From positions 815,736 through 879,735 of the forward strand of contig CBDCMS010000004.1 of assembly GCA_965219005.1 (NCBI GenBank): DNA of 64,000 nt, given 5' to 3'. A program made the translations under genes and the position numbers. Source of the DNA: Acidobacteriota bacterium (lineage in GTDB: Bacteria > Acidobacteriota > UBA6911 > RPQK01 > JAJDTT01). Position 1 is the first letter of the stretch; each line of letters begins with the position of its first letter. The notes under the pieces are model-generated. The model was given only the letters and a program-made list of their open reading frames with translations, ran no database searches and was not told the DNA's origin. Below, one piece after another: positions 41,216 through 50,489 of this stretch.

Positions 41216-41247
41216 CCCCACTGAAGAGCTCGAGCTCTTCAGTGGGG
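41216..41247. repeat. Perfect 32-bp loopless palindrome over the transposase stop codon
   Basis: CCCCACTGAAGAGCTC|GAGCTCTTCAGTGGGG. Confidence 0.9.
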
Positions 41248-42594
41248 CCAATCCGGAACCTCGTCCCAGAACAGCGAGTCGTCGGAGGCTCGAACGGCTT
41301 GAGCCTGCTGGGGGGAAAGTTCCGCCAGAAAGTGTTCCAGCTTCTGCGGAAACAACCGGGGTGGGGGCGCCCGTTGCGGCCCTTGCCCCAGCTTCAAATG
41401 CGCCAGAATCCGGCGGATCACATGAGGCTGCTCGATCACCGCGATCACGCGCAGAGAGCTGCCGCAACCACAGCGCAAGGGATCGACGTCATAGATCTTG
41501 CGGAGCAGACGAGCCCAGCTACGACGGCGCCTGAAGCGCTCGGCCGCGGACTCCTCCTCGACGGAGCGGTCCTCGGAGAGCGGGCCGTGGACGGCTTTCT
41601 GCTGCTGCCGTCGTTTCCCACGTGAGGCGCTAGCGTAACGGCCATAGTAACGGATTTGGTGCTCATTTCGATCGGGGATATGCGAGCAGACCCGGGCCCT
41701 CCAGTCCAAGGCATCCAGCGACTGCAGCGTCCCCTTGCCGGTGCGGTAGAGGATCTGGCCGCGATCGCTCTGATAGTCGAGGCGGGAGGCGGCGAAACTG
41801 GGACGTCGAATGTAGGCGGCCAGACGCTCCAGAGCCGGGCGATCCTCGGGGGGAACACCTCGAGAGGAGTAGACCCCGAATCCGGAGGGAGACCAGGCGC
41901 GCAACTTCTGGGCGAACTCCGGACTGAGTCGATGCTGCTGGACCATCATCTCCAAGACCCGGTGTTGGAACAGGCGGCTGAGTAAAGAGGAGTCGAAGCC
42001 GCCGATCGAGACCCCACGGCCGTCCCCATTCCAGGCCGTGTCGCTGACCAGCCCATGGAGGTGAGCGTGAGGTCGCAAGTTGTCGCCCCAGGTCTGGGTG
42101 GTCAGGATGGCCCCCGGAACCGAGCCGGGCCCCAAGCGGCTTTGGACATAGTCCCGGAGACTGGCCCAGGCGCAGCGGCAGAGCTCTCCCAAGAGCTTTC
42201 GGTCTTTGTAGAAGGCCGGACGCAGGACCCTCGGAATCGTCCACACCAGCTGCCGGTGGTCGACCTCCTCGAGCACCTCCTCCAGCACCTGTTCCAGGAA
42301 AGCAGCCACCTGCTTGGCTTGGCAACTCGGACAAAAACAGCGCGTTTTGCATGAAAATGCCAACAACTGCTCCCGTCGACAGTCGGAGCAGCGCAGGCGG
42401 GCGAATCCATGACGAAGGATCCCACATTGGAGGAAACGTTCGACGGTTTTCTCCACCACCGGACGCCAGGGCCCATAGTCTCTCTCGTAGAAGTAGGGAT
42501 AGGCCTCCTTGAACTCTTCCCAGTAGTCCTCCAGACACTGGTAGAAGGCGGTGTGCTCGGGATGACGGGGCCGGTAGGTGCCAGCGAGGGGCAT
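41239..42594 (-). CDS. IS91-family HUH transposase (zinc-binding domain + Y2_Tnp-like domain)
   Basis: CGILRHGFARLRCSDC...FSCKTRCFCPSC, HUH PHAHLH, RLAAYIRRP, IRYYGRY, CGCG...IRRILAHL...RAPP. Confidence 0.92.
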   Translation of the reverse strand: MPLAGTYRPRHPEHTAFYQCLEDYWEEFKEAYPYFYERDYGPWRPVVEKTVERFLQCGILRHGFARLRCSDCRREQLLAFSCKTRCFCPSCQAKQVAAFLEQVLEEVLEEVDHRQLVWTIPRVLRPAFYKDRKLLGELCRCAWASLRDYVQSRLGPGSVPGAILTTQTWGDNLRPHAHLHGLVSDTAWNGDGRGVSIGGFDSSLLSRLFQHRVLEMMVQQHRLSPEFAQKLRAWSPSGFGVYSSRGVPPEDRPALERLAAYIRRPSFAASRLDYQSDRGQILYRTGKGTLQSLDALDWRARVCSHIPDRNEHQIRYYGRYASASRGKRRQQQKAVHGPLSEDRSVEEESAAERFRRRRSWARLLRKIYDVDPLRCGCGSSLRVIAVIEQPHVIRRILAHLKLGQGPQRAPPPRLFPQKLEHFLAELSPQQAQAVRASDDSLFWDEVPDWPH

Positions 42595-43531: not shown

Positions 43532-44590
43532 CTAGTCCTGACCCTCCGGATTATCTCGCTCTGTGCTCCCCCGCGATAATGCCTTTCTCATCCTGATCAA
43601 GATGTCTGGCGATGCAACCGTGTCGTGTTTCAAGATGAGGAGCGCGAAGTTGTCAGCCAGGATCTCCTCTGGATGGATGATGTATTTTGTGTTTCTGCCG
43701 ACTTGCTCGAAGAAACTCGAAATCCCGTCCATCCCTACCAGGGCTGGATTGGTGCCATCATATTTTGGGTGCACCACTAGCGGATCGGAGTCTCGATCGA
43801 CCAACAGGAACTTGAATTGTAGGTAGTCAAAGAGCCCTTTGCCGCTTTCCATCTCGTACTTCTCGCGGTTGGAAAAGAGAATGGGGACAGCCCAGGTGGG
43901 TTCTCCGTCGACCCCTATTCGAATGCAGTGCTCGTGTCTGGGTGCGTCGGGATTCGTGATCCTTCGGGATCGGAGCGCGGCCGGAAACCGAAATCCGGGA
44001 CATTTCCTGAAGCCGATGCCTCGATAGAGGCGGTCCTTCAGCTCCGGGTTCGCCCGTGAAAGGATGTGGAATAGCTCGTGGCAGATGATCCGCTGGATTT
44101 CCCAGGGCTCTGCCATGAGTTTGGTGACGGGTAGGACGATGGCCTGCCCGCGCGTGTAGGCTGCCTCGCTTTCTTCTTTTCCAGTGGTCTTGACCAGGTA
44201 GATCCTCTCAGGCAACGGGAGCGCCAGCTTCTCCAGAGCTGATCGTACGCTGTCGAGAGCGGCACCCATCTGCTCCTTCTCTCGCCCCGTCCAGGCAAGC
44301 ACCTGTCGTCCGACGAACAAGAGGAATTTCGATTCGGAGACCTCGCGGTCCGTCTTCAGACGTAGCGCTCGATCGAATGGGCTGAGCCGCTCGACGAAAT
44401 CGTCTCGTTGTTCTAGAGCCTTCCGTCCCTCAGCAACGGTTGCGAAGACGAGGGTAGTATCCCCCACTATCACTCCGTCAGGGCTCGCCTCAAGGTACCG
44501 GGCACACACGATGAGTGCTGTCAGGCATAGAACGCTTGACCGTGATCGCCCGAAGAAACGGAAAAGATTGTTGCGCACTGTCAACTTCAT
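43532..44590 (-). CDS. Exported hypothetical protein with a HExxH zincin motif
   Basis: Signal-like N-terminus; ICHELFHILSR; distal IHPEEILADNF glutamate motif. Confidence 0.78.
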   Translation of the reverse strand: MKLTVRNNLFRFFGRSRSSVLCLTALIVCARYLEASPDGVIVGDTTLVFATVAEGRKALEQRDDFVERLSPFDRALRLKTDREVSESKFLLFVGRQVLAWTGREKEQMGAALDSVRSALEKLALPLPERIYLVKTTGKEESEAAYTRGQAIVLPVTKLMAEPWEIQRIICHELFHILSRANPELKDRLYRGIGFRKCPGFRFPAALRSRRITNPDAPRHEHCIRIGVDGEPTWAVPILFSNREKYEMESGKGLFDYLQFKFLLVDRDSDPLVVHPKYDGTNPALVGMDGISSFFEQVGRNTKYIIHPEEILADNFALLILKHDTVASPDILIRMRKALSRGSTERDNPEGQD

Positions 44591-44689
44591 GAACTTTTGA
44601 TCGCAGATCTAAAAGAGTCCCTGTCATTGTGCAAGAGATCGAGTCCCAAGTACATCTGGCGTGAAGAGGTCGCAATTTCCACTTCTCGC

Positions 44690-44737
44690 TTGACAAGGGC
44701 GATGAGATTTATTGAAATTGAAATTCAATTTCAATAA
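44690..44737 (+). promoter_or_regulatory. Sigma70 promoter with an overlapping Fur-like palindromic operator
   Basis: TTGACA at 44690-44695; perfect 13-3-13 inverted repeat TTATTGAAATTGA-AAT-TCAATTTCAATAA (44709-44737) upstream of porin-feoAB. Confidence 0.75.
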
Positions 44738-44772
44738 GGCCCTGGGCCGCTGGTCCTGGCTGAGTTGATTTT

Positions 44773-44916
44773 GAGGAGAGAGTTGCTGAGGGGGGATCCG
44801 CCGGCCGTGTCGGCGCAGCCCTTGGCTTTTGGGGCCCTCGAGAGAAGGCCGACCTTCAGTACATGGCTCCCATGGCAGTCGGCAAGCGGGAGCCGCTCCA
44901 AGCGCCCCGAGGAGGA
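44773..44916 (+). promoter_or_regulatory. Structured 5' leader, candidate metal-sensing riboswitch (yybP-ykoY-like features)
   Basis: GGAG-AGAGTT-GC start, branched hairpin, GCCGAC/GTCGGC stem enclosing TCAGTAC + ATGG/CCAT, and a CTCC able to pair with either the 5' GGAG or the SD GGAG. Confidence 0.35.
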
Positions 44917-44920
44917 TTGT

Positions 44921-46348
44921 GTGTACAGAACCGCATCAAGACGTCGGATAGTCTTCGCGTTATTCAAATATGGGGTGCTGGCCTCGTGGCTCAGCCTGCT
45001 GGTGCCTTCAGCTCTGAGCTCAGAGCAGGACCAGCTGAAGGCGAAGCTGGAGGAGTTGGAGCGCAGATTGGAGGCGCTGGAGGCTCAGAATACCGCGGAA
45101 AGGGTGGCGGCGACTCCCCCGAGCCCGGCCCCGGGAACTCAGTCGGCGGAGCTCCAGGAACTGCGACGGCAGCTCGACATCCTGGCCGCCGAGGTGGAGC
45201 TCATTAGAAGCGGAGAGCCGCTCATCGAGGTGACCAATGAAGAGGCCCGAGCCCGGGGCCTGGGACCCGCGGCGGCTTCTGTCTATCGGCGACAGGAGGG
45301 TGTTTCGATCGCCGGCTACGGTGAAATGCTCTACAACAACTTCAGCGCCGAGAACGAACTTGGAGATCCCGTCAGGCAATCCACCCAGTTCGATTTCCTG
45401 CGGGCCATCATCTATGCTGGCTACCGCTTCAACGACCGCTTCGTATTCAATTCCGAGATTGAGTTCGAACATGCTTCGACCAGCCTGGAGGGATCTGCCT
45501 CGGTCGAATTCGCTTATCTGGACTTCATTGCGAATGACTACCTCACATTGCGGGGCGGACTTCTCCTGGTTCCAATGGGATTGGTCAACGAGCTGCACGA
45601 GCCTACCGTTTTCATGGGGGCGCTGCGTCCCGAGACCGAACGCCGGATCATACCCTCCACCTGGCGAGAGAACGGCGTCGGTGCTGTCGGATCGGTCGGA
45701 ATTTTCGACTATCGGGTCTACATGATCAATGGCTTGCAGGGCTCCCGCTTCAGCTCCAATGGTCTTCGGGGAGGACGTCAAAAGGGTTCCGAAACGACCG
45801 CTACGGATATGGCGGTGGTGGCGCGTCTGGACGTCAATCCGACGCCGGGCGTTTTCTTTGGTGGTTCCATCTACAACGGCGCTTCGGATCAGGGCGCGCT
45901 TTTCGAGGGCAACGAGCTGGACGTTGGAACGACGATCGGCGAGCTACACGGCCAGGCCCAACTGCGGGGTTTCGATGTACGAGGGTTGTACGCCTGGTCA
46001 CGCCTGGACGATGTGATCCGTTTAAACCAATCATTGGGTCTCACGGGCAGTGGTAGCATCGGTGAAAGACTCGAGGGGGGATACTTCCAAGTCGGGTACA
46101 ATCTGCTGTCCCAATTCAGGGCCGATGTTCGGGTGACGCCTTACTACCGGTACGAGATCCTCGATACCCAGAAGGCGGTCCCCAGGGGTTTCTTCCGGAA
46201 TCCCAGCAGAGATCGTACCTTTCAGACCCTGGGACTGGAGTTCAAACCCATCCCCAATATCGTCATCAAGTCGGATTTCGTTTGGAGTCGGAACAAGTCG
46301 CAGACGGGGGTGAATCAGGTCAACGTCGCCCTGGGTTACAACTTCTAG
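44921..46348 (+). CDS. Outer-membrane beta-barrel (porin-like) with N-terminal coiled coil
   Basis: GGAGGA + GTG, signal peptide, heptad ELERRLEALE, IAGYGE, FNSEIEFEH..VEFAYLD, terminal ALGYNF. Confidence 0.85.
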   Translation: MYRTASRRRIVFALFKYGVLASWLSLLVPSALSSEQDQLKAKLEELERRLEALEAQNTAERVAATPPSPAPGTQSAELQELRRQLDILAAEVELIRSGEPLIEVTNEEARARGLGPAAASVYRRQEGVSIAGYGEMLYNNFSAENELGDPVRQSTQFDFLRAIIYAGYRFNDRFVFNSEIEFEHASTSLEGSASVEFAYLDFIANDYLTLRGGLLLVPMGLVNELHEPTVFMGALRPETERRIIPSTWRENGVGAVGSVGIFDYRVYMINGLQGSRFSSNGLRGGRQKGSETTATDMAVVARLDVNPTPGVFFGGSIYNGASDQGALFEGNELDVGTTIGELHGQAQLRGFDVRGLYAWSRLDDVIRLNQSLGLTGSGSIGERLEGGYFQVGYNLLSQFRADVRVTPYYRYEILDTQKAVPRGFFRNPSRDRTFQTLGLEFKPIPNIVIKSDFVWSRNKSQTGVNQVNVALGYNF

Positions 46349-46433
46349 CGGACTCGTTCTTGTTGTCGCTAGACTATGGGGGACGAATGAGAGTTAATGG
46401 TTAGCGCATCTTCGCTCCAGGACTGAAACGCCT

Positions 46434-46691
46434 ATGCCCCCGCTCACGCTTGATGATCTAGTTAAGGGCGAAGAAGGGATCCTCGATTCCATCGAGCTGC
46501 CGGAAGCAGAGAGCCGCCGACTGATGGAGCTGGGATTCTTGCCGGGCACCTTGGTTGCCGCAGCCGGCCGCTCGCCTTTTGGCGATCCACGCATCTTCCG
46601 CGTCGATGGCTCAGAGGTTGCGCTGCGTCGTGAGACCGCCGCCCGCCTGATGCTTCGTCCATCCCAAGCGATTCCCGAGAAGGATTCATGA
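46434..46691 (+). CDS. feoA: Ferrous iron transport protein A
   Basis: RLMELGFLPG, SPFGDP, VDGSEVALRRETA. Confidence 0.92.
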   Translation: MPPLTLDDLVKGEEGILDSIELPEAESRRLMELGFLPGTLVAAAGRSPFGDPRIFRVDGSEVALRRETAARLMLRPSQAIPEKDS

Positions 46692-48580
46692 GCCAGCGCC
46701 AGCCTGAGGTCGTGGAGTTTGGTGCCACCTCGGCAACTCGGCAGCCGGCTTCGGGCGGCGTTCGTACGGTAGCCGTTGTGGGTCCACCCAACGCGGGCAA
46801 GTCTACACTCTTCAATCGCCTCACCGGACTGCGTCAGAAGGTGGCCAACTACCCTGGCGTGACGGTAGAGAAGAGAGTAGGACAGGCCCGTCTCTCCGGT
46901 AGCGTGGAAGTCGAACTGGTCGATCTGCCGGGGATCTACAGTCTGAAGCCGATGTCAGAGGATGAACGGGTCGCCCATGATGTTCTGACGGGTCGTATGG
47001 CGGGAGTCTCCCCTCCCGATGCCATCGTCCTCATTCTCGACTCCACGAATCTGGGGCGTCACCTCAGTTTCGCCGCACCCATTCTCAGCTTGGGAGTGCC
47101 GACTCTGGTGGTTCTCAACATGGCAGATGATCTTCGAAGGCGGGGCGGGAATCTCGAACTTGACAAGCTCGCAGATCGTCTTGGAGCTCCCGTCGCCTTG
47201 ATCAGTGCCCGAACTGGCGAGGGAGTTCCTGCCGTCGAAGAGTTTCTGGAGGGGGCCCTGGGTGTCCCAAATCCGGTGGAACTCCCGGTTATTCAGGATA
47301 TTCCCAAGTGCCGCGAATGGTCAGCCCGGGTTGGAATTGAAGCAGATTACGCTGCGCCGGCTCCGCCCCTTTGGACGCGGCGCCTGGACGCCCTCTTTCT
47401 CCATCCGCTGGCTGGTCCGCTTATCTTCGGGATCTTGGTGGTTGCGGTGTTCCAGACGGTGTTCACGGTGGCCGTACCCCTGATGGATGGGGTGGATGCC
47501 GCCGTTTCGACTTCCGGCAGTTGGCTGAACTCTCTGCTGCCCGATTCCTGGTTTCGGAGCCTCCTGATCGAAGGTGTGTGGGGCGGGGTGGGTTCGGTCG
47601 TGGTTTTTCTGCCCCAGATCCTTCTTCTCTTTATCTTCATTGGGGTTCTGGAGGATTCGGGCTATATGGCCCGGGCCGCCCTGATCGCGGACCGTACCAT
47701 GAGGAACGTGGGACTGCAGGGGAAATCCTTCATTCCGCTGCTTTCGGCCTATGCCTGCGCCGTCCCCGCCATAATGGCCACTCGGACCATCGAGAGCAAA
47801 CGTGATCGTATGGCTACCATCCTGATCGCGCCCTTCATGACTTGCTCGGCGAGGCTGCCGGTCTACACGCTGGTGATTGCGGCGTTTATCCCCGAACAGC
47901 CGCTACTGGGTGGAATTCTCGGTACCCGTGCGGTGACGATGCTGGGCCTATATCTGCTCGGTTTCCTGGCGGCGTTTTTCACGGCCTGGGCTCTCAAGTC
48001 GTCCGTCTTGCGCAGCGGTGGCTCCTCTTTCGTACTGGAGATGCCTCCCTACCGATTACCAAGCCTACGGTCCCTGGGCCTTCGTCTATTCGATCGTGCC
48101 CGTATCTTCTTGAGGCGCGCTGGGACCGTGATCATGGCCACCAGCATCATCTTGTGGATTCTGGCCAGCTTGCCGCTCCAGGATGGCGAACCTCCTCCCA
48201 TAGCTGAGAGTGTCGTTGGGACGGTGGGTCGCACCATAGAGCCCGTCATTGAACCCCTGGGGTTCAATTGGAGAATTGGCGTTGGACTCATCACCTCACT
48301 TGCGGCTCGGGAAGTCATCGTCGGAACTCTGGGCACCCTCTACGGGATGGAGGAGGATGAGGGCTCGCGTGATTTGCAAGAGGCTCTGAAAAGCGAATTA
48401 GACCTGGGTGGGGCCGTGGCCCTTCTGGTGTTCTTCGCCTTCGCTATGCAGTGCATGTCCACGGTAGCAGTCGTGCGGAGGGAGACGGGAAGCTGGAAGT
48501 GGCCTGTGATCCAGTTTGCCTACATGACCTTGCTAGCCTATGTCGCAGCGTTTTTCGCAAACGCGCTGATCCGCACATGA
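46688..48580 (+). CDS. feoB: Ferrous iron transport protein B
   Basis: G1 GPPNAGKST, G2 NYPGVTVE, G3 DLPG, G4 NMAD, gate motifs CAVPAIMATR, MTCSARLPVY, QCMST; ATGA overlap with feoA. Confidence 0.95.
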   Translation: MSQRQPEVVEFGATSATRQPASGGVRTVAVVGPPNAGKSTLFNRLTGLRQKVANYPGVTVEKRVGQARLSGSVEVELVDLPGIYSLKPMSEDERVAHDVLTGRMAGVSPPDAIVLILDSTNLGRHLSFAAPILSLGVPTLVVLNMADDLRRRGGNLELDKLADRLGAPVALISARTGEGVPAVEEFLEGALGVPNPVELPVIQDIPKCREWSARVGIEADYAAPAPPLWTRRLDALFLHPLAGPLIFGILVVAVFQTVFTVAVPLMDGVDAAVSTSGSWLNSLLPDSWFRSLLIEGVWGGVGSVVVFLPQILLLFIFIGVLEDSGYMARAALIADRTMRNVGLQGKSFIPLLSAYACAVPAIMATRTIESKRDRMATILIAPFMTCSARLPVYTLVIAAFIPEQPLLGGILGTRAVTMLGLYLLGFLAAFFTAWALKSSVLRSGGSSFVLEMPPYRLPSLRSLGLRLFDRARIFLRRAGTVIMATSIILWILASLPLQDGEPPPIAESVVGTVGRTIEPVIEPLGFNWRIGVGLITSLAAREVIVGTLGTLYGMEEDEGSRDLQEALKSELDLGGAVALLVFFAFAMQCMSTVAVVRRETGSWKWPVIQFAYMTLLAYVAAFFANALIRT

Positions 48581-48624
48581 CGGCTAAGGGGGTGGAAGTC
48601 AGTTAAAAGGATAATAAACTGGCG

Positions 48625-49151
48625 TCGTCCTCGACTGCCGGAACCTGGGCTCATGTTGACAACGGGTCGTTCGCGGCTCTGTCGGATCGCCAAGGGTTGA
48701 TGATCGGCGATCGTTTGGAACTTGGTGCTTGTGATTTGGAGCTTGTTTGTATCTTGTTTCTTGTATCTTGGGATTTTCAAGTTTCAGCTTAGCACCGGCT
48801 CCGGCTGCGCCGGATCGTACAGGAAAGAAACTTCAGTCGAGGAACGTATTGGTGGTCTCCGTACCGCCGTGTTCTTTCGTTCGAGCCTTTGGCTCGAAGC
48901 CAGAACTTCGGCCTGGAGACCGAAGCCACGTTTGAAGTTTCAGGTTAGCCCCGCCCCCAGCGATGCTGGCCCCATTCGAGAACGGAACTTTTCGGGGTCA
49001 ACAGAGATCTTGCTGTTGTCCGGCTCTCTCCTCGGAACTTGGGCTCATCTTGCAGGCAAGTCAAGTCGTTCGCGGCTCTGTTGCCTGCAGCTGTTTCCGG
49101 TACTGTTCACTGATCACTTCATCACTGTTCACTATTCAAGTTTCAGCTTAG
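48625..49151. repeat. Tandem cluster of three modular repeat units (copy D)
   Basis: Units end in CAAGTTTCAGCTTAG (48778-48792), GAAGTTTCAGGTTAG (48934-48948) and CAAGTTTCAGCTTAG (49137-49151); lies between convergent feoB and oxidoreductase genes. Confidence 0.8.
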
Positions 49152-49178
49152 CCTTCCGCCCTTGAGCATCTGCATCTC

Positions 49179-50489
49179 TCACACCTTCTCCGGCAGCTGG
49201 AACTTGGGATGGTACTGGCGCGTGAGCAGCTTGTTGGCTTCCTTGTCTCCTGGAAACGTCTCCGTCTCGGGGTCGAACCTCAACTCCCTGCCCAGCCGGT
49301 AGGAAATGTTGCCCAGGTGGCAAAAGGCATTGGAGAGGTGGATGTCCTCGATCTCGGCGTTGAGGATGTCAGGCCGTTCCTCTCGAATGGCCTGGAAGAA
49401 GTTGCTGAACTGAATTCGGTCGACCTTCTGGATTTTGCCGACCGGCGGCAGGTCCCCCAGACCCGGCTCTGGCTTCTTGCTCCGCCCCAGGAAGACCTCG
49501 AAGCTCCCGCCCGAGAAAATCCGCATGTGCCCCTTGCTTCCATAGAAATGCCAGCTTCTGGGTTCTCCGGTGTAATAACCGCGGATCTCCCCCACCACAA
49601 TGGTGCCGTCTGGATACTGATGGGTTACAGTCAGGGTGTTGGGAGTCTGAGCCTGGTCGCGGTAGCCGAACCGGCCCCCCACTGCATCGATGCGGGTGGG
49701 AAGCCCCTTGGACTTGCCCAGTCCCCAGTGGCAGACATCTACGGAGTGGCTCCCGTTGTTCCCCATTTCGCCACCTCCGAAGTCCCAGAACCAGTGCCAG
49801 TTGTAGTGGACCAGGTTCTCGTGAAAGGGCTGCTCCACAGCGGGTCCCCGCCAGAGGTTCCAGTCGAGCGAAGCGGGTGGCGTCGTCGGTTTCTTGAAGC
49901 CAATGGACTCGCGGGGGCCGGGCAGCAGCCAACGGGTCATGTAGATGTCGCCAACGATCCCTTCGTGGATCAGGCCGATGGCCTTGCGGAAATTGGGATG
50001 GGAACGGCGTTGGGTCCCGCCCATGACCACCCGCTGGTACTTCCGAGCCGCCTGGACCAGCATCCGGCCTTCCTTCAGATTGTGGGAAATCGGTTTCTCG
50101 ACGTAAGCATGCTTGCCCGCCTGGCAGGCCCAGATTCCTGCCGGAGCATGCCAGTGATTGCAGCAGGTCATGATCACGGCATCGATCTCTGGATCTTCCA
50201 TGATCCGCCTCAGATCCACCTCGGTCGCGGGTCTTCGTCCGGTCAGGGTTTCCAGCTCTGCGGCCCATTTCTCCCGCCGGTCCTGGTCCGGATCACAGAC
50301 CGTCGCCACCTGGACCCGGTCCAGGGCATTCACCGTCTTCATGACGCTTCCGCCCCGACCGCCCATGCCGATGATGGCGACGTTGATACGGTCGTTGGCC
50401 CCGGCCCAGGAGGCAGGGCCCACCAGGGAAGCAGCTCCAGCGGCCAGCGTCGTATTCTTCAGAAACTCGCGGCGCTTGAGATTCGCCAT
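49179..50489 (-). CDS. Tat-exported Gfo/Idh/MocA oxidoreductase
   Basis: KRREFLK, IIGMGGRG, NHWHAP, HAYVEKP, GTQRRS, HYNWHWFWDFGGG. Confidence 0.92.
   Translation of the reverse strand: MANLKRREFLKNTTLAAGAASLVGPASWAGANDRINVAIIGMGGRGGSVMKTVNALDRVQVATVCDPDQDRREKWAAELETLTGRRPATEVDLRRIMEDPEIDAVIMTCCNHWHAPAGIWACQAGKHAYVEKPISHNLKEGRMLVQAARKYQRVVMGGTQRRSHPNFRKAIGLIHEGIVGDIYMTRWLLPGPRESIGFKKPTTPPASLDWNLWRGPAVEQPFHENLVHYNWHWFWDFGGGEMGNNGSHSVDVCHWGLGKSKGLPTRIDAVGGRFGYRDQAQTPNTLTVTHQYPDGTIVVGEIRGYYTGEPRSWHFYGSKGHMRIFSGGSFEVFLGRSKKPEPGLGDLPPVGKIQKVDRIQFSNFFQAIREERPDILNAEIEDIHLSNAFCHLGNISYRLGRELRFDPETETFPGDKEANKLLTRQYHPKFQLPEKV

Follow-up and report, generated by a model that had tools for sequence, protein, structure and literature searches.

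We found a porin gene followed by feoA and feoB behind a single Fur-type operator in an Acidobacteriota genome, and a near-identical operator, on another contig, ahead of a flavin-based gene module. The DNA under study (hereafter the window) is a stretch of 64,000 nucleotides (nt) from contig CBDCMS010000004.1 of assembly GCA_965219005.1, and the operon with its promoter occupies positions 44690-48580 of it. In our best reading, which we consider probable, the two operons form a Fur-type regulon for iron starvation, in which a specific porin with the fold of OprP feeds a flavin reductase and the importer FeoB. What is new here is that a porin/flavin cassette has been split, that the operator has been kept on both halves, and that the porin stands ahead of the sole feoAB of the genome. 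The split, the shared operator and the linkage to feoAB are predicted to tie porin, reductase and importer into one iron-uptake route. The elements of the window operon are the following.

44690-44695, + strand: -35 hexamer TTGACA, read from the sequence and kept in two close relatives (L009 and L010), in the second operator (L003, 7510-7515), in L097 and in L098

44713-44718, + strand: putative -10 hexamer TGAAAT, 17 nt after the -35 hexamer and within the left arm of the palindrome

44709-44737, no strand: operator palindrome, interpreted as two overlapping Fur-type boxes with a shift of 6 base pairs (bp)

44909-44915, + strand: ribosome-binding site GAGGAGG, read from the sequence and invariant in L009 and L010

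44921-46348, + strand: porin gene encoding 475 amino acids (aa), with a signal peptide, a periplasmic coiled coil, a 16-strand OprP-fold barrel and invariant Glu/His motifs

46434-46691, + strand: feoA (PF04023, E 2.8e-16, 59.8 bits against a cut-off of 23)

46688-48580, + strand: feoB, 630 aa (TIGR00437, 471.9 bits against a cut-off of 315.65)

An earlier note on this DNA, made from its letters, had described a perfect 13-3-13 palindrome over the promoter. The palindrome is there and is slightly longer: it is a perfect 29-bp sequence whose arms (44709-44722 and 44724-44737, 14 nt each) are 100% complementary around a gap of 1 nt, a 14-1-14 arrangement that contains the 13-3-13 one. It lies in the intergenic region on the start side of the porin gene (44591-44920), and a 23-nt palindrome core with at most 3 mismatches has a chance expectation of 0.00 in shuffled copies of the window. 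The 29-mer holds two 17-mers, 6 bp apart, that match the delta-proteobacterial FUR box WTGAAAATNATTTTCAW at 15 of 17 and 14 of 17 positions (consensus sequences were taken from PMC545781). In addition, the central 19-mer, GAAATTGAAATTCAATTTC, is in register with the E. coli Fur consensus at 13 of 19 positions. The operator fits the Fur-box consensus and also covers the putative -10 hexamer, two of the features by which a Fur-regulated operator is recognized. Judging from its sequence, we predict that Fur binds the 29-bp operator in a metal-dependent manner.

The genome assembly that we searched (8.8 Mb in 4 contigs, 94% complete) contains exactly two perfect copies of the 19-nt operator core. 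The second copy is part of a near-identical operator on another contig (C3:823530-823554), at a 2.9 Mb-scale distance, where the TTGACA-17-TGAAAT layout recurs with an identical -10 sequence and spacing (L003, 7533-7538). It precedes an operon that encodes, in this order, a protein related to the FMN_bind family (FMN being flavin mononucleotide), a 154-aa protein with four transmembrane (4-TM) helices and ApbE. The same split arrangement, again with exactly two perfect sites each, is present in the two closest genomes, G001 and G002: one site is ahead of porin-feoAB, and the other is ahead of the FMN_bind, 4-TM and ApbE genes. The next-best sites in the searched assembly have 3 mismatches and occur within open reading frames (ORFs) or across a start codon, and we treated these copies as chance.

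The names given earlier to feoA and feoB hold, as both products score above the cut-offs of their families. The feoB product also matches the Pfam families FeoB_N (164.9 bits), Gate (131.7 bits) and FeoB_C (60.7 bits). It is the sole true FeoB of the genome; other FeoB_N matches are weak and score like generic GTPases. FTR1, the iron permease, was not found in the 94% complete genome. The porin gene and feoA are separated by 85 nt, in which no intrinsic terminator is predicted, and feoA and feoB overlap by 4 nt. The absence of feoC next to a compact feoB had been remarked upon; however, outside Gammaproteobacteria feoB is generally known without feoC. The single downstream ORF tested does not encode a FeoC-like product. 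The ORF originally listed for the porin opens at TTG 44765 and is probably overlong. The true start is probably GTG 44921, from which homologues and relatives align, because all close homologues have 475 aa and align from residue 1 and because GAGGAGG stands just before this codon.

The porin does not belong to any Pfam or NCBIfam family, and searches of these collections gave coiled-coil noise only. Matches in the PDB to the porin profile were dismissed as coiled-coil (FtsB, GCN4) and small-barrel noise, and such coiled-coil noise explains why one homologue bears the stray source name "cell division protein FtsB". The Porin_O_P family (PF07396) has no match to the window porin even at E <= 10, and it partially matches two fused homologues (28.8 and 23.1 bits), at profile positions 16-95 only. 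The porin family is nevertheless very large: a word-indexed search found 4,988 proteins, and 2,673 cluster representatives match at E <= 1e-3, with 585 still matching at E <= 1e-30. Named members are few, and almost all are labelled "hypothetical".

An AlphaFold2 model of the porin, based on a 45-sequence alignment, has a mean predicted local distance difference test (pLDDT) score of 89.6. It consists of a signal-peptide-like N-terminus, long helices at residues 31-63 and 73-96, 16 beta-strands within residues 127-474 and a terminal Phe, in agreement with the beta-barrel and N-terminal periplasmic coiled coil that had been described from the sequence. Foldseek puts the model among trimeric porins. 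The top matches in VIA-align are OprP and OprO (2o4v and 4rjw; Z 27.3 and 27.2, root mean square deviation 3.2-3.4, 309-318 residues aligned), and general porins score about 3 units less (Z ~24). The model itself is a monomer; given the coiled-coil stalk and the OprP-like fold, the protein is likely a homotrimer. Family members have the coiled coil whether or not they are linked to feo. Its roughly 66 helical residues span about 10 nm, as estimated from the model, and it would more plausibly act as a stalk for trimerisation or peptidoglycan spacing than as a bridge to FeoB.

In 45 porin sequences of 33-52% identity, residues E179, E181, E183 and H184, all on one strand, are invariant or nearly so. 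The same is true of N223-E224-x-H226-E227-P228 and, after it, of R236-P237 and E240; these residues lie in the long loop that joins strands 5 and 6, where porins have their constriction loop. A number of Arg residues are also invariant or nearly so. Because of strand alternation, E179, E181, E183 and H184 are predicted to share one face, which would be the face toward the lumen. At the level of sequence, this pattern of invariant residues is the signature of a substrate-specific channel, and we predict selectivity on this basis.

To learn what usually accompanies the porin, we scanned one genome per species, starting from searches with 12 porin sequences. This gave 586 loci with relatives of the porin, of which the best 80 were inspected with 8-kb flanks. 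Most of these 80 loci belong to Acidobacteriota, among them Vicinamibacteria and Thermoanaerobaculia, and to Gemmatimonadota; Latescibacterota and Planctomycetota contribute one locus each. An FMN_bind gene directly follows the porin gene in 74 of the 80. Since contig ends explain 2 of the 6 loci that lack it, the figure is 74 of 78 among informative loci. A 4-TM gene comes after the porin in 71 loci, and ApbE is adjacent to it in 59 (downstream in 32 and upstream in 27). FTR1 is nearby in 4 loci, and feoB is downstream of the porin in 2. The porin and flavin-module genes often overlap, and their linkage is tight across phyla. Ten long "fusions" with the porin in database gene calls were tested; nine have ApbE at the N-terminus and one has FTR1, which is independent evidence of the same adjacency. 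All-against-all clustering of the ORFs of the 80 loci yielded, beyond the four core genes, lineage-specific neighbours only, namely genes for a Na/H antiporter, a glycosyltransferase, a glyoxalase and a P5C (pyrroline-5-carboxylate) reductase.

Given FMN_bind in 74 loci and feoB in 2, the usual partner of the porin is the flavin module and not Feo. The two loci with feoB are those of the closest relatives, whose porins are 92% and 89% identical to that of the window. One metagenome contig (L089), with 79% porin identity, also has the order porin-feoA-feoB. At 66% identity, relatives carry the porin on its own. On this sequence comparison, the linkage to feoAB is a recent rearrangement within one clade. 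Apparent cases of independent linkage to feoB in two Gemmatimonadales loci (L064 and L067) were rejected, as the genes encode generic MMR_HSR1 GTPases by clpP and tig.

The FMN-binding protein of the second operon has 202 aa and a membrane anchor. Its GATLT motif, of the flavinylation type, is invariant or nearly so in 45-73 sequences. The ApbE protein matches PF02424 (E 7.8e-57). The 154-aa protein has four transmembrane helices and five histidines, H41, H51, H69, H118 and H132, that are invariant or nearly so; helix 2 carries two of them, and so does helix 4. A profile search for this protein found no relative among PDB sequences. Its structural model has a pLDDT of 95.7, and the closest folds are di-haem cytochromes b of the type of FdnI and HyaC, subunits of formate dehydrogenase-N and hydrogenase-1, respectively (TM-score 0.57-0.66 and Foldseek probability 0.98-1.0, although E is ~0.2). 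A search with a language model gave a weak lead to Ni_hydr_CYTB. According to the model, the 154-aa protein is probably di-haem cytochrome-b-like, and the module is expected to bind haem and flavin. The module is small, with a single flavin, and there is no multihaem or multiflavin partner in the inspected loci. When the mature porin was co-folded with the soluble portion of the FMN-binding protein, the result spoke neither for nor against binding. At L003:5256-5858, just upstream of the second operator, there is a NifU-like / Fe-S-biosynthesis fusion together with a solute-binding protein, which is perhaps a matter of neighbourhood only.

Operators of this type occur ahead of the porin operon beyond the window's clade. 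A degenerate box, GANAWTGAW-N-WTCAWTNTC with at most 2 mismatches, is present upstream of the operon in 21 of the 80 loci when the 450 nt before the operon's first gene are searched (34.5 kb in total). The remaining 1.13 Mb of these loci contain only 4 matches. Taken singly, many of these sites closely resemble classical Fur boxes, AAGAATGATTCTCATTCTC being one example. In G003, a relative with 66% porin identity, similar operators are found ahead of a gene for an FbpA-like ABC solute-binding protein (L099:1501-2556) and ahead of a porin paralogue (L103); in G005, one is found ahead of a ferritin-like gene (L104:1501-2054). Palindromes upstream of the distant family members L091, L093 and L094 were not informative. 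The operator proposed in the earlier note is in part borne out, being Fur-box-like, conserved upstream of the porin family and present before other iron genes; its repression by a Fur-type regulator is a prediction.

The only Fur-family gene of the genome (L008:1441-2412; G000:C2, ~91.8-92.8 kb) encodes a protein of 323 aa. Its N-terminal Fur domain scores 107.5 bits, with the best NCBIfam matches to Fur, rather than to PerR or Zur, and toward the C-terminus it has a four-helix, di-iron-type domain that resembles rubrerythrin and ferritin and carries ExxH motifs. The fusion is full-length in all five relatives compared (62-94% identity; one genome unpublished). The unpublished genome is G005, the source of L015, L100 and L104, on which the ferritin observation and part of the conservation of the fusion depend. 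A literature search found no paper on a fusion of Fur with a rubrerythrin-like domain. This protein is the likeliest candidate for the regulator of both operons.

We propose that the parts would work together as follows. When iron is sufficient, a Fur-family repressor, likeliest the Fur fusion, would occupy the operators across the -10 hexamers of both promoters. Under starvation, the porin, probably a trimeric channel with a 16-strand OprP fold and a stalk, would admit Fe2+ or a small complex of Fe3+ to the periplasm. ApbE would flavinylate the membrane-anchored FMN-binding protein, to which electrons would pass through the small cytochrome-b-like protein, so that iron could be reduced or kept reduced. 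FeoB, with FeoA, would then import the Fe2+. As for the evolution of the system, the porin would have become detached from the flavin operon in this clade and been put ahead of feoAB, with the operator kept on both halves. In this scheme, the identities of the genes, the folds, the synteny and the duplication and conservation of the operator are observed here, and iron as the substrate, the identity of the regulator, the binding of haem and flavin, the direction of electron flow and the selectivity of the pore are predicted.

A more far-reaching reading is possible, and we offer it tentatively. The porin could be a metal-cation-selective counterpart of OprP, with a Glu/His constriction for the arginine ladder, and the outer-membrane entry point of an undescribed, envelope-spanning route of reductive iron uptake, in which a flavinylated periplasmic reductase, fed by a novel miniature di-haem cytochrome b, comes next and either FeoB or FTR1 last. 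With the same reserve, this pathway might be widespread in Acidobacteriota and Gemmatimonadota and, in the present genome, under the control of the unusual fusion of Fur with a di-iron, rubrerythrin-like domain. That the cassette is naturally split in this clade, with the operator on both halves and the porin beside feoAB, could then count, no less tentatively, as genetic support for a single pathway of porin, reductase and Feo. If true, a porin family that is currently unannotated would, with its Fur boxes and a flavin reductase, constitute a TonB-independent route of reductive iron uptake in abundant phyla of soil and sediment. The split regulon offers experimental handles, namely two promoters with one operator, one candidate regulator and defined invariant residues of the pore.

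The passage of iron across the outer membrane to Feo or FTR1 is usually credited to general porins, and specific examples are few. A porin with a Fur box beside feoAB is not new as an idea, as it was predicted in Geobacter in 2004. Rodionov et al. (Genome Biol 5:R90; PMC545781) predicted porins controlled by FUR boxes in Geobacter and Desulfuromonas and proposed a role for them in ferrous iron transport. One of them, "psp", has a weak likeness to PF07396; the other is a porin of the OprB family in the arrangement X-feoA-feoA-feoB2. Overlapping boxes with a 6-bp shift were also described in that paper. As in the window, a porin gene there follows a Fur-type box, and in G. sulfurreducens feoA/feoB come immediately after the porin gene. 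However, the feo-linked porin of Geobacter is of the OprB family, unlike the window porin, and no flavin module is mentioned for either "psp" or the OprB porin. We found no experimental test of the Geobacter prediction in the literature.

The flavin module also has relatives in published work. According to Meheust et al. (2021, PMC8238504) and Huang et al. (2024, PMC11334425), iron assimilation repeatedly involves ApbE-flavinylated proteins that are paired with small cytochromes of the membrane; such clusters adjoin ferrous transporters, and some are repressed by Fur. The published clusters include PepSY-like proteins with DUF2271 and ApbE, MsrQ-like proteins, DUF4405/FezC cytochromes, and P19-FTR1 with FMN_bind. 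The module described here resembles these iron-reductase clusters in combining ApbE with an exported protein that is a candidate for flavinylation and with a small, putatively haem-binding membrane protein. It differs in that its membrane partner matches none of PepSY_TM, MsrQ-like and DUF4405 in Pfam, and in that it is split from the porin. The word "porin" is absent from the main text of both papers, and no publication describing the four-gene porin/flavin cassette was found in the literature.

The best fold matches, OprP and OprO of P. aeruginosa, are porins selective for phosphate and pyrophosphate. They share the 16-strand barrel with the window porin at 14% identity, whereas the window porin has no Porin_O_P match, has a coiled coil and has invariant residues that are largely Glu and His, with several Arg. 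OprP has an arginine ladder, to go by the title of entry 2o4v, and the predicted regulon of the window porin is Fur-type and not phosphate-related. An outer-membrane protein functionally paired with FeoB for the uptake of ferrous iron is on record in FupA of Francisella (PMC4905997, PMC7432831) and OmpC of E. coli (PMC7315122). FupA and OmpC belong to unrelated families and, unlike the window porin, their genes are not in the feoAB operon.

Several observations weigh against the reading of the two operons as an iron-starvation regulon under Fur. Two strong sites per genome make a small regulon for a global Fur. A scan for consensus sigma-70 promoters did not list TTGACA-17-TGAAAT, because the -10 hexamer lacks A at position 2, and the promoter assignment therefore rests on conservation. 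The box pattern was shaped partly by the same loci in which it was counted, so that its enrichment is somewhat optimistic. FMN_bind scores 20.6 bits in the FMN-binding protein, just below the cut-off of 22 bits, and the 154-aa protein has no Pfam family at E <= 0.1, including PepSY_TM, MsrQ-like and DUF4405. The lining of the pore by Glu and His is taken from strand alternation, not from coordinates. A gene of the DtxR family is also present in the genome, and a distant relative of the porin (L093:4444-6353, 36% identity, in a metagenome-assembled genome of Candidatus Eisenbacteria) is 33 nt downstream of a gene of the DtxR family (Fe_dep_repress); the regulator may therefore be another than Fur, and even the metal may be Mn rather than Fe.

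The alternatives have to be judged against the same evidence. The earlier note regarded the porin as a candidate for a dedicated Fe(II) channel of Feo, whose coiled coil might form a physical bridge between the outer membrane and FeoB. The order porin-feoA-feoB behind one operator is kept in four sequences (the window, L009, L010 and L089), and FeoB is the sole recognisable Fe(II) importer of the genome. Yet it is only within the narrow clade of the window, at porin identities of 79% or more, that feoAB stands behind the porin. Relatives at 66% have just the porin, and 74 of the 80 loci have the flavin module instead. In the survey of synteny that the note had suggested, the porin family is largely unlinked to feo, an outcome that the note itself had named as counting against its proposal: the 2 loci with feoAB and the metagenome contig all fall within 79-92% identity. 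The coiled coil occurs throughout the family without regard to feo, nothing points to a bridge, and a span of about 10 nm would fall short of the inner membrane. Of that proposal, a specialised channel in an iron-linked gene set is supported and Feo-specificity is not, and we consider the dedicated, bridging channel unlikely. A regulator other than Fur, for example the DtxR/MntR-family protein of the genome, could control a regulon for Mn or another divalent metal, with FeoB as an importer of Mn(II) or of mixed specificity. The DtxR-family gene, the porin relative right after such a gene and an IdeR-like sequence (TTAGATTAGGCTAAAT) upstream of the porin paralogue in this genome speak for this idea, and two strong sites per genome would suit a narrow, specialised regulator. 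The layout of the box, however, with hexamer repeats, 9-1-9 symmetry and a GAnAWTGAW half-site, suits Fur and not the IdeR/DtxR consensus, TTAGGTTAGGCTAACCTAA. Related boxes are also ahead of FbpA-like and ferritin-like genes, and FTR1 and FeoAB are iron transporters. A regulator other than Fur seems to us an unlikely explanation as well.

That the closest folds are OprP and OprO, with general porins near behind, and that Porin_O_P matches two homologues weakly, would fit an OprP-like pore, general or anion-selective, that shares the regulation of iron genes but has no specific role in the passage of iron, for instance as a substitute major porin under starvation. Such a pore is hard to reconcile with the tight synteny with the flavin module, which holds across phyla and often involves overlapping genes, with the invariance of E179, E181, E183, H184 and the N223-P228 motif in sequences as little as 33% identical, or with the lack of any Porin_O_P match in the window porin itself; we regard it as quite improbable. 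Flavinylated FMN-binding proteins also serve in extracellular electron transfer (PMC8238504), and the porin with its flavin module could accordingly be a respiratory or extracellular electron-transfer conduit, the nearness of feoAB being incidental. Fur-type operators are conserved before the operon, though, FTR1 and FeoAB are linked to the module, and the module is a small one with a single flavin and no multihaem or multiflavin partner in the inspected loci, so that we hold this to be highly improbable. The reading that we prefer remains the Fur-type regulon of two operons in which the porin, the flavin reductase and FeoB serve iron uptake.

Two further features border the window operon or fall within it.

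44762-44906, + strand: insertion of about 145 nt in the 5′ leader, lineage-specific and missing from L009 and L010, the two close relatives

43532-44590, - strand: gene for a secreted HExxH (zincin-like) protein of 352 aa with the motif HELFH; its Pfam matches are weak only and assign no family

The possibility that the leader is a riboswitch or another structured RNA was rejected. Rfam has no match across 44300-49300 at E <= 1, the insertion is missing from both close relatives, and the fold energy of the 145-nt segment is no better than that of shuffled sequences (z = +0.97). An origin of the insertion from a repeat or from a miniature inverted-repeat transposable element was also rejected, as the segment is single-copy in the genome. 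We treated it as a neutral insertion, with no function detected.

The gene for the HELFH protein is divergent from the porin operon and shares with it the intergenic region that bears the operator. This neighbour is kept in L009 and L010. The gene (43532-44590) might be co-regulated with the operon.

A porin paralogue elsewhere in this genome (L096:4967-7991, - strand; G000:C3, ~2.275-2.278 Mb) scores 318.8 bits against the family profile and is followed on the same strand by a gene for a di-haem oxidoreductase (DHOR, PF06537). Upstream of it are TTGACT and the IdeR/DtxR-like sequence TTAGATTAGGCTAAAT (~8052-8068 of L096). Together, the genes for the porin paralogue and DHOR may represent another porin operon that responds to a metal, but through a different regulator.

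An intact IS91-family transposase gene (Zn_Tnp_IS91 and Y2_Tnp; 41239-42594, - strand) is 2 kb upstream of the window operon, by a DUF1697 gene. Further mobile elements flank the second operon (IS110-type) and the porin paralogue (IS1595- and DDE-type).

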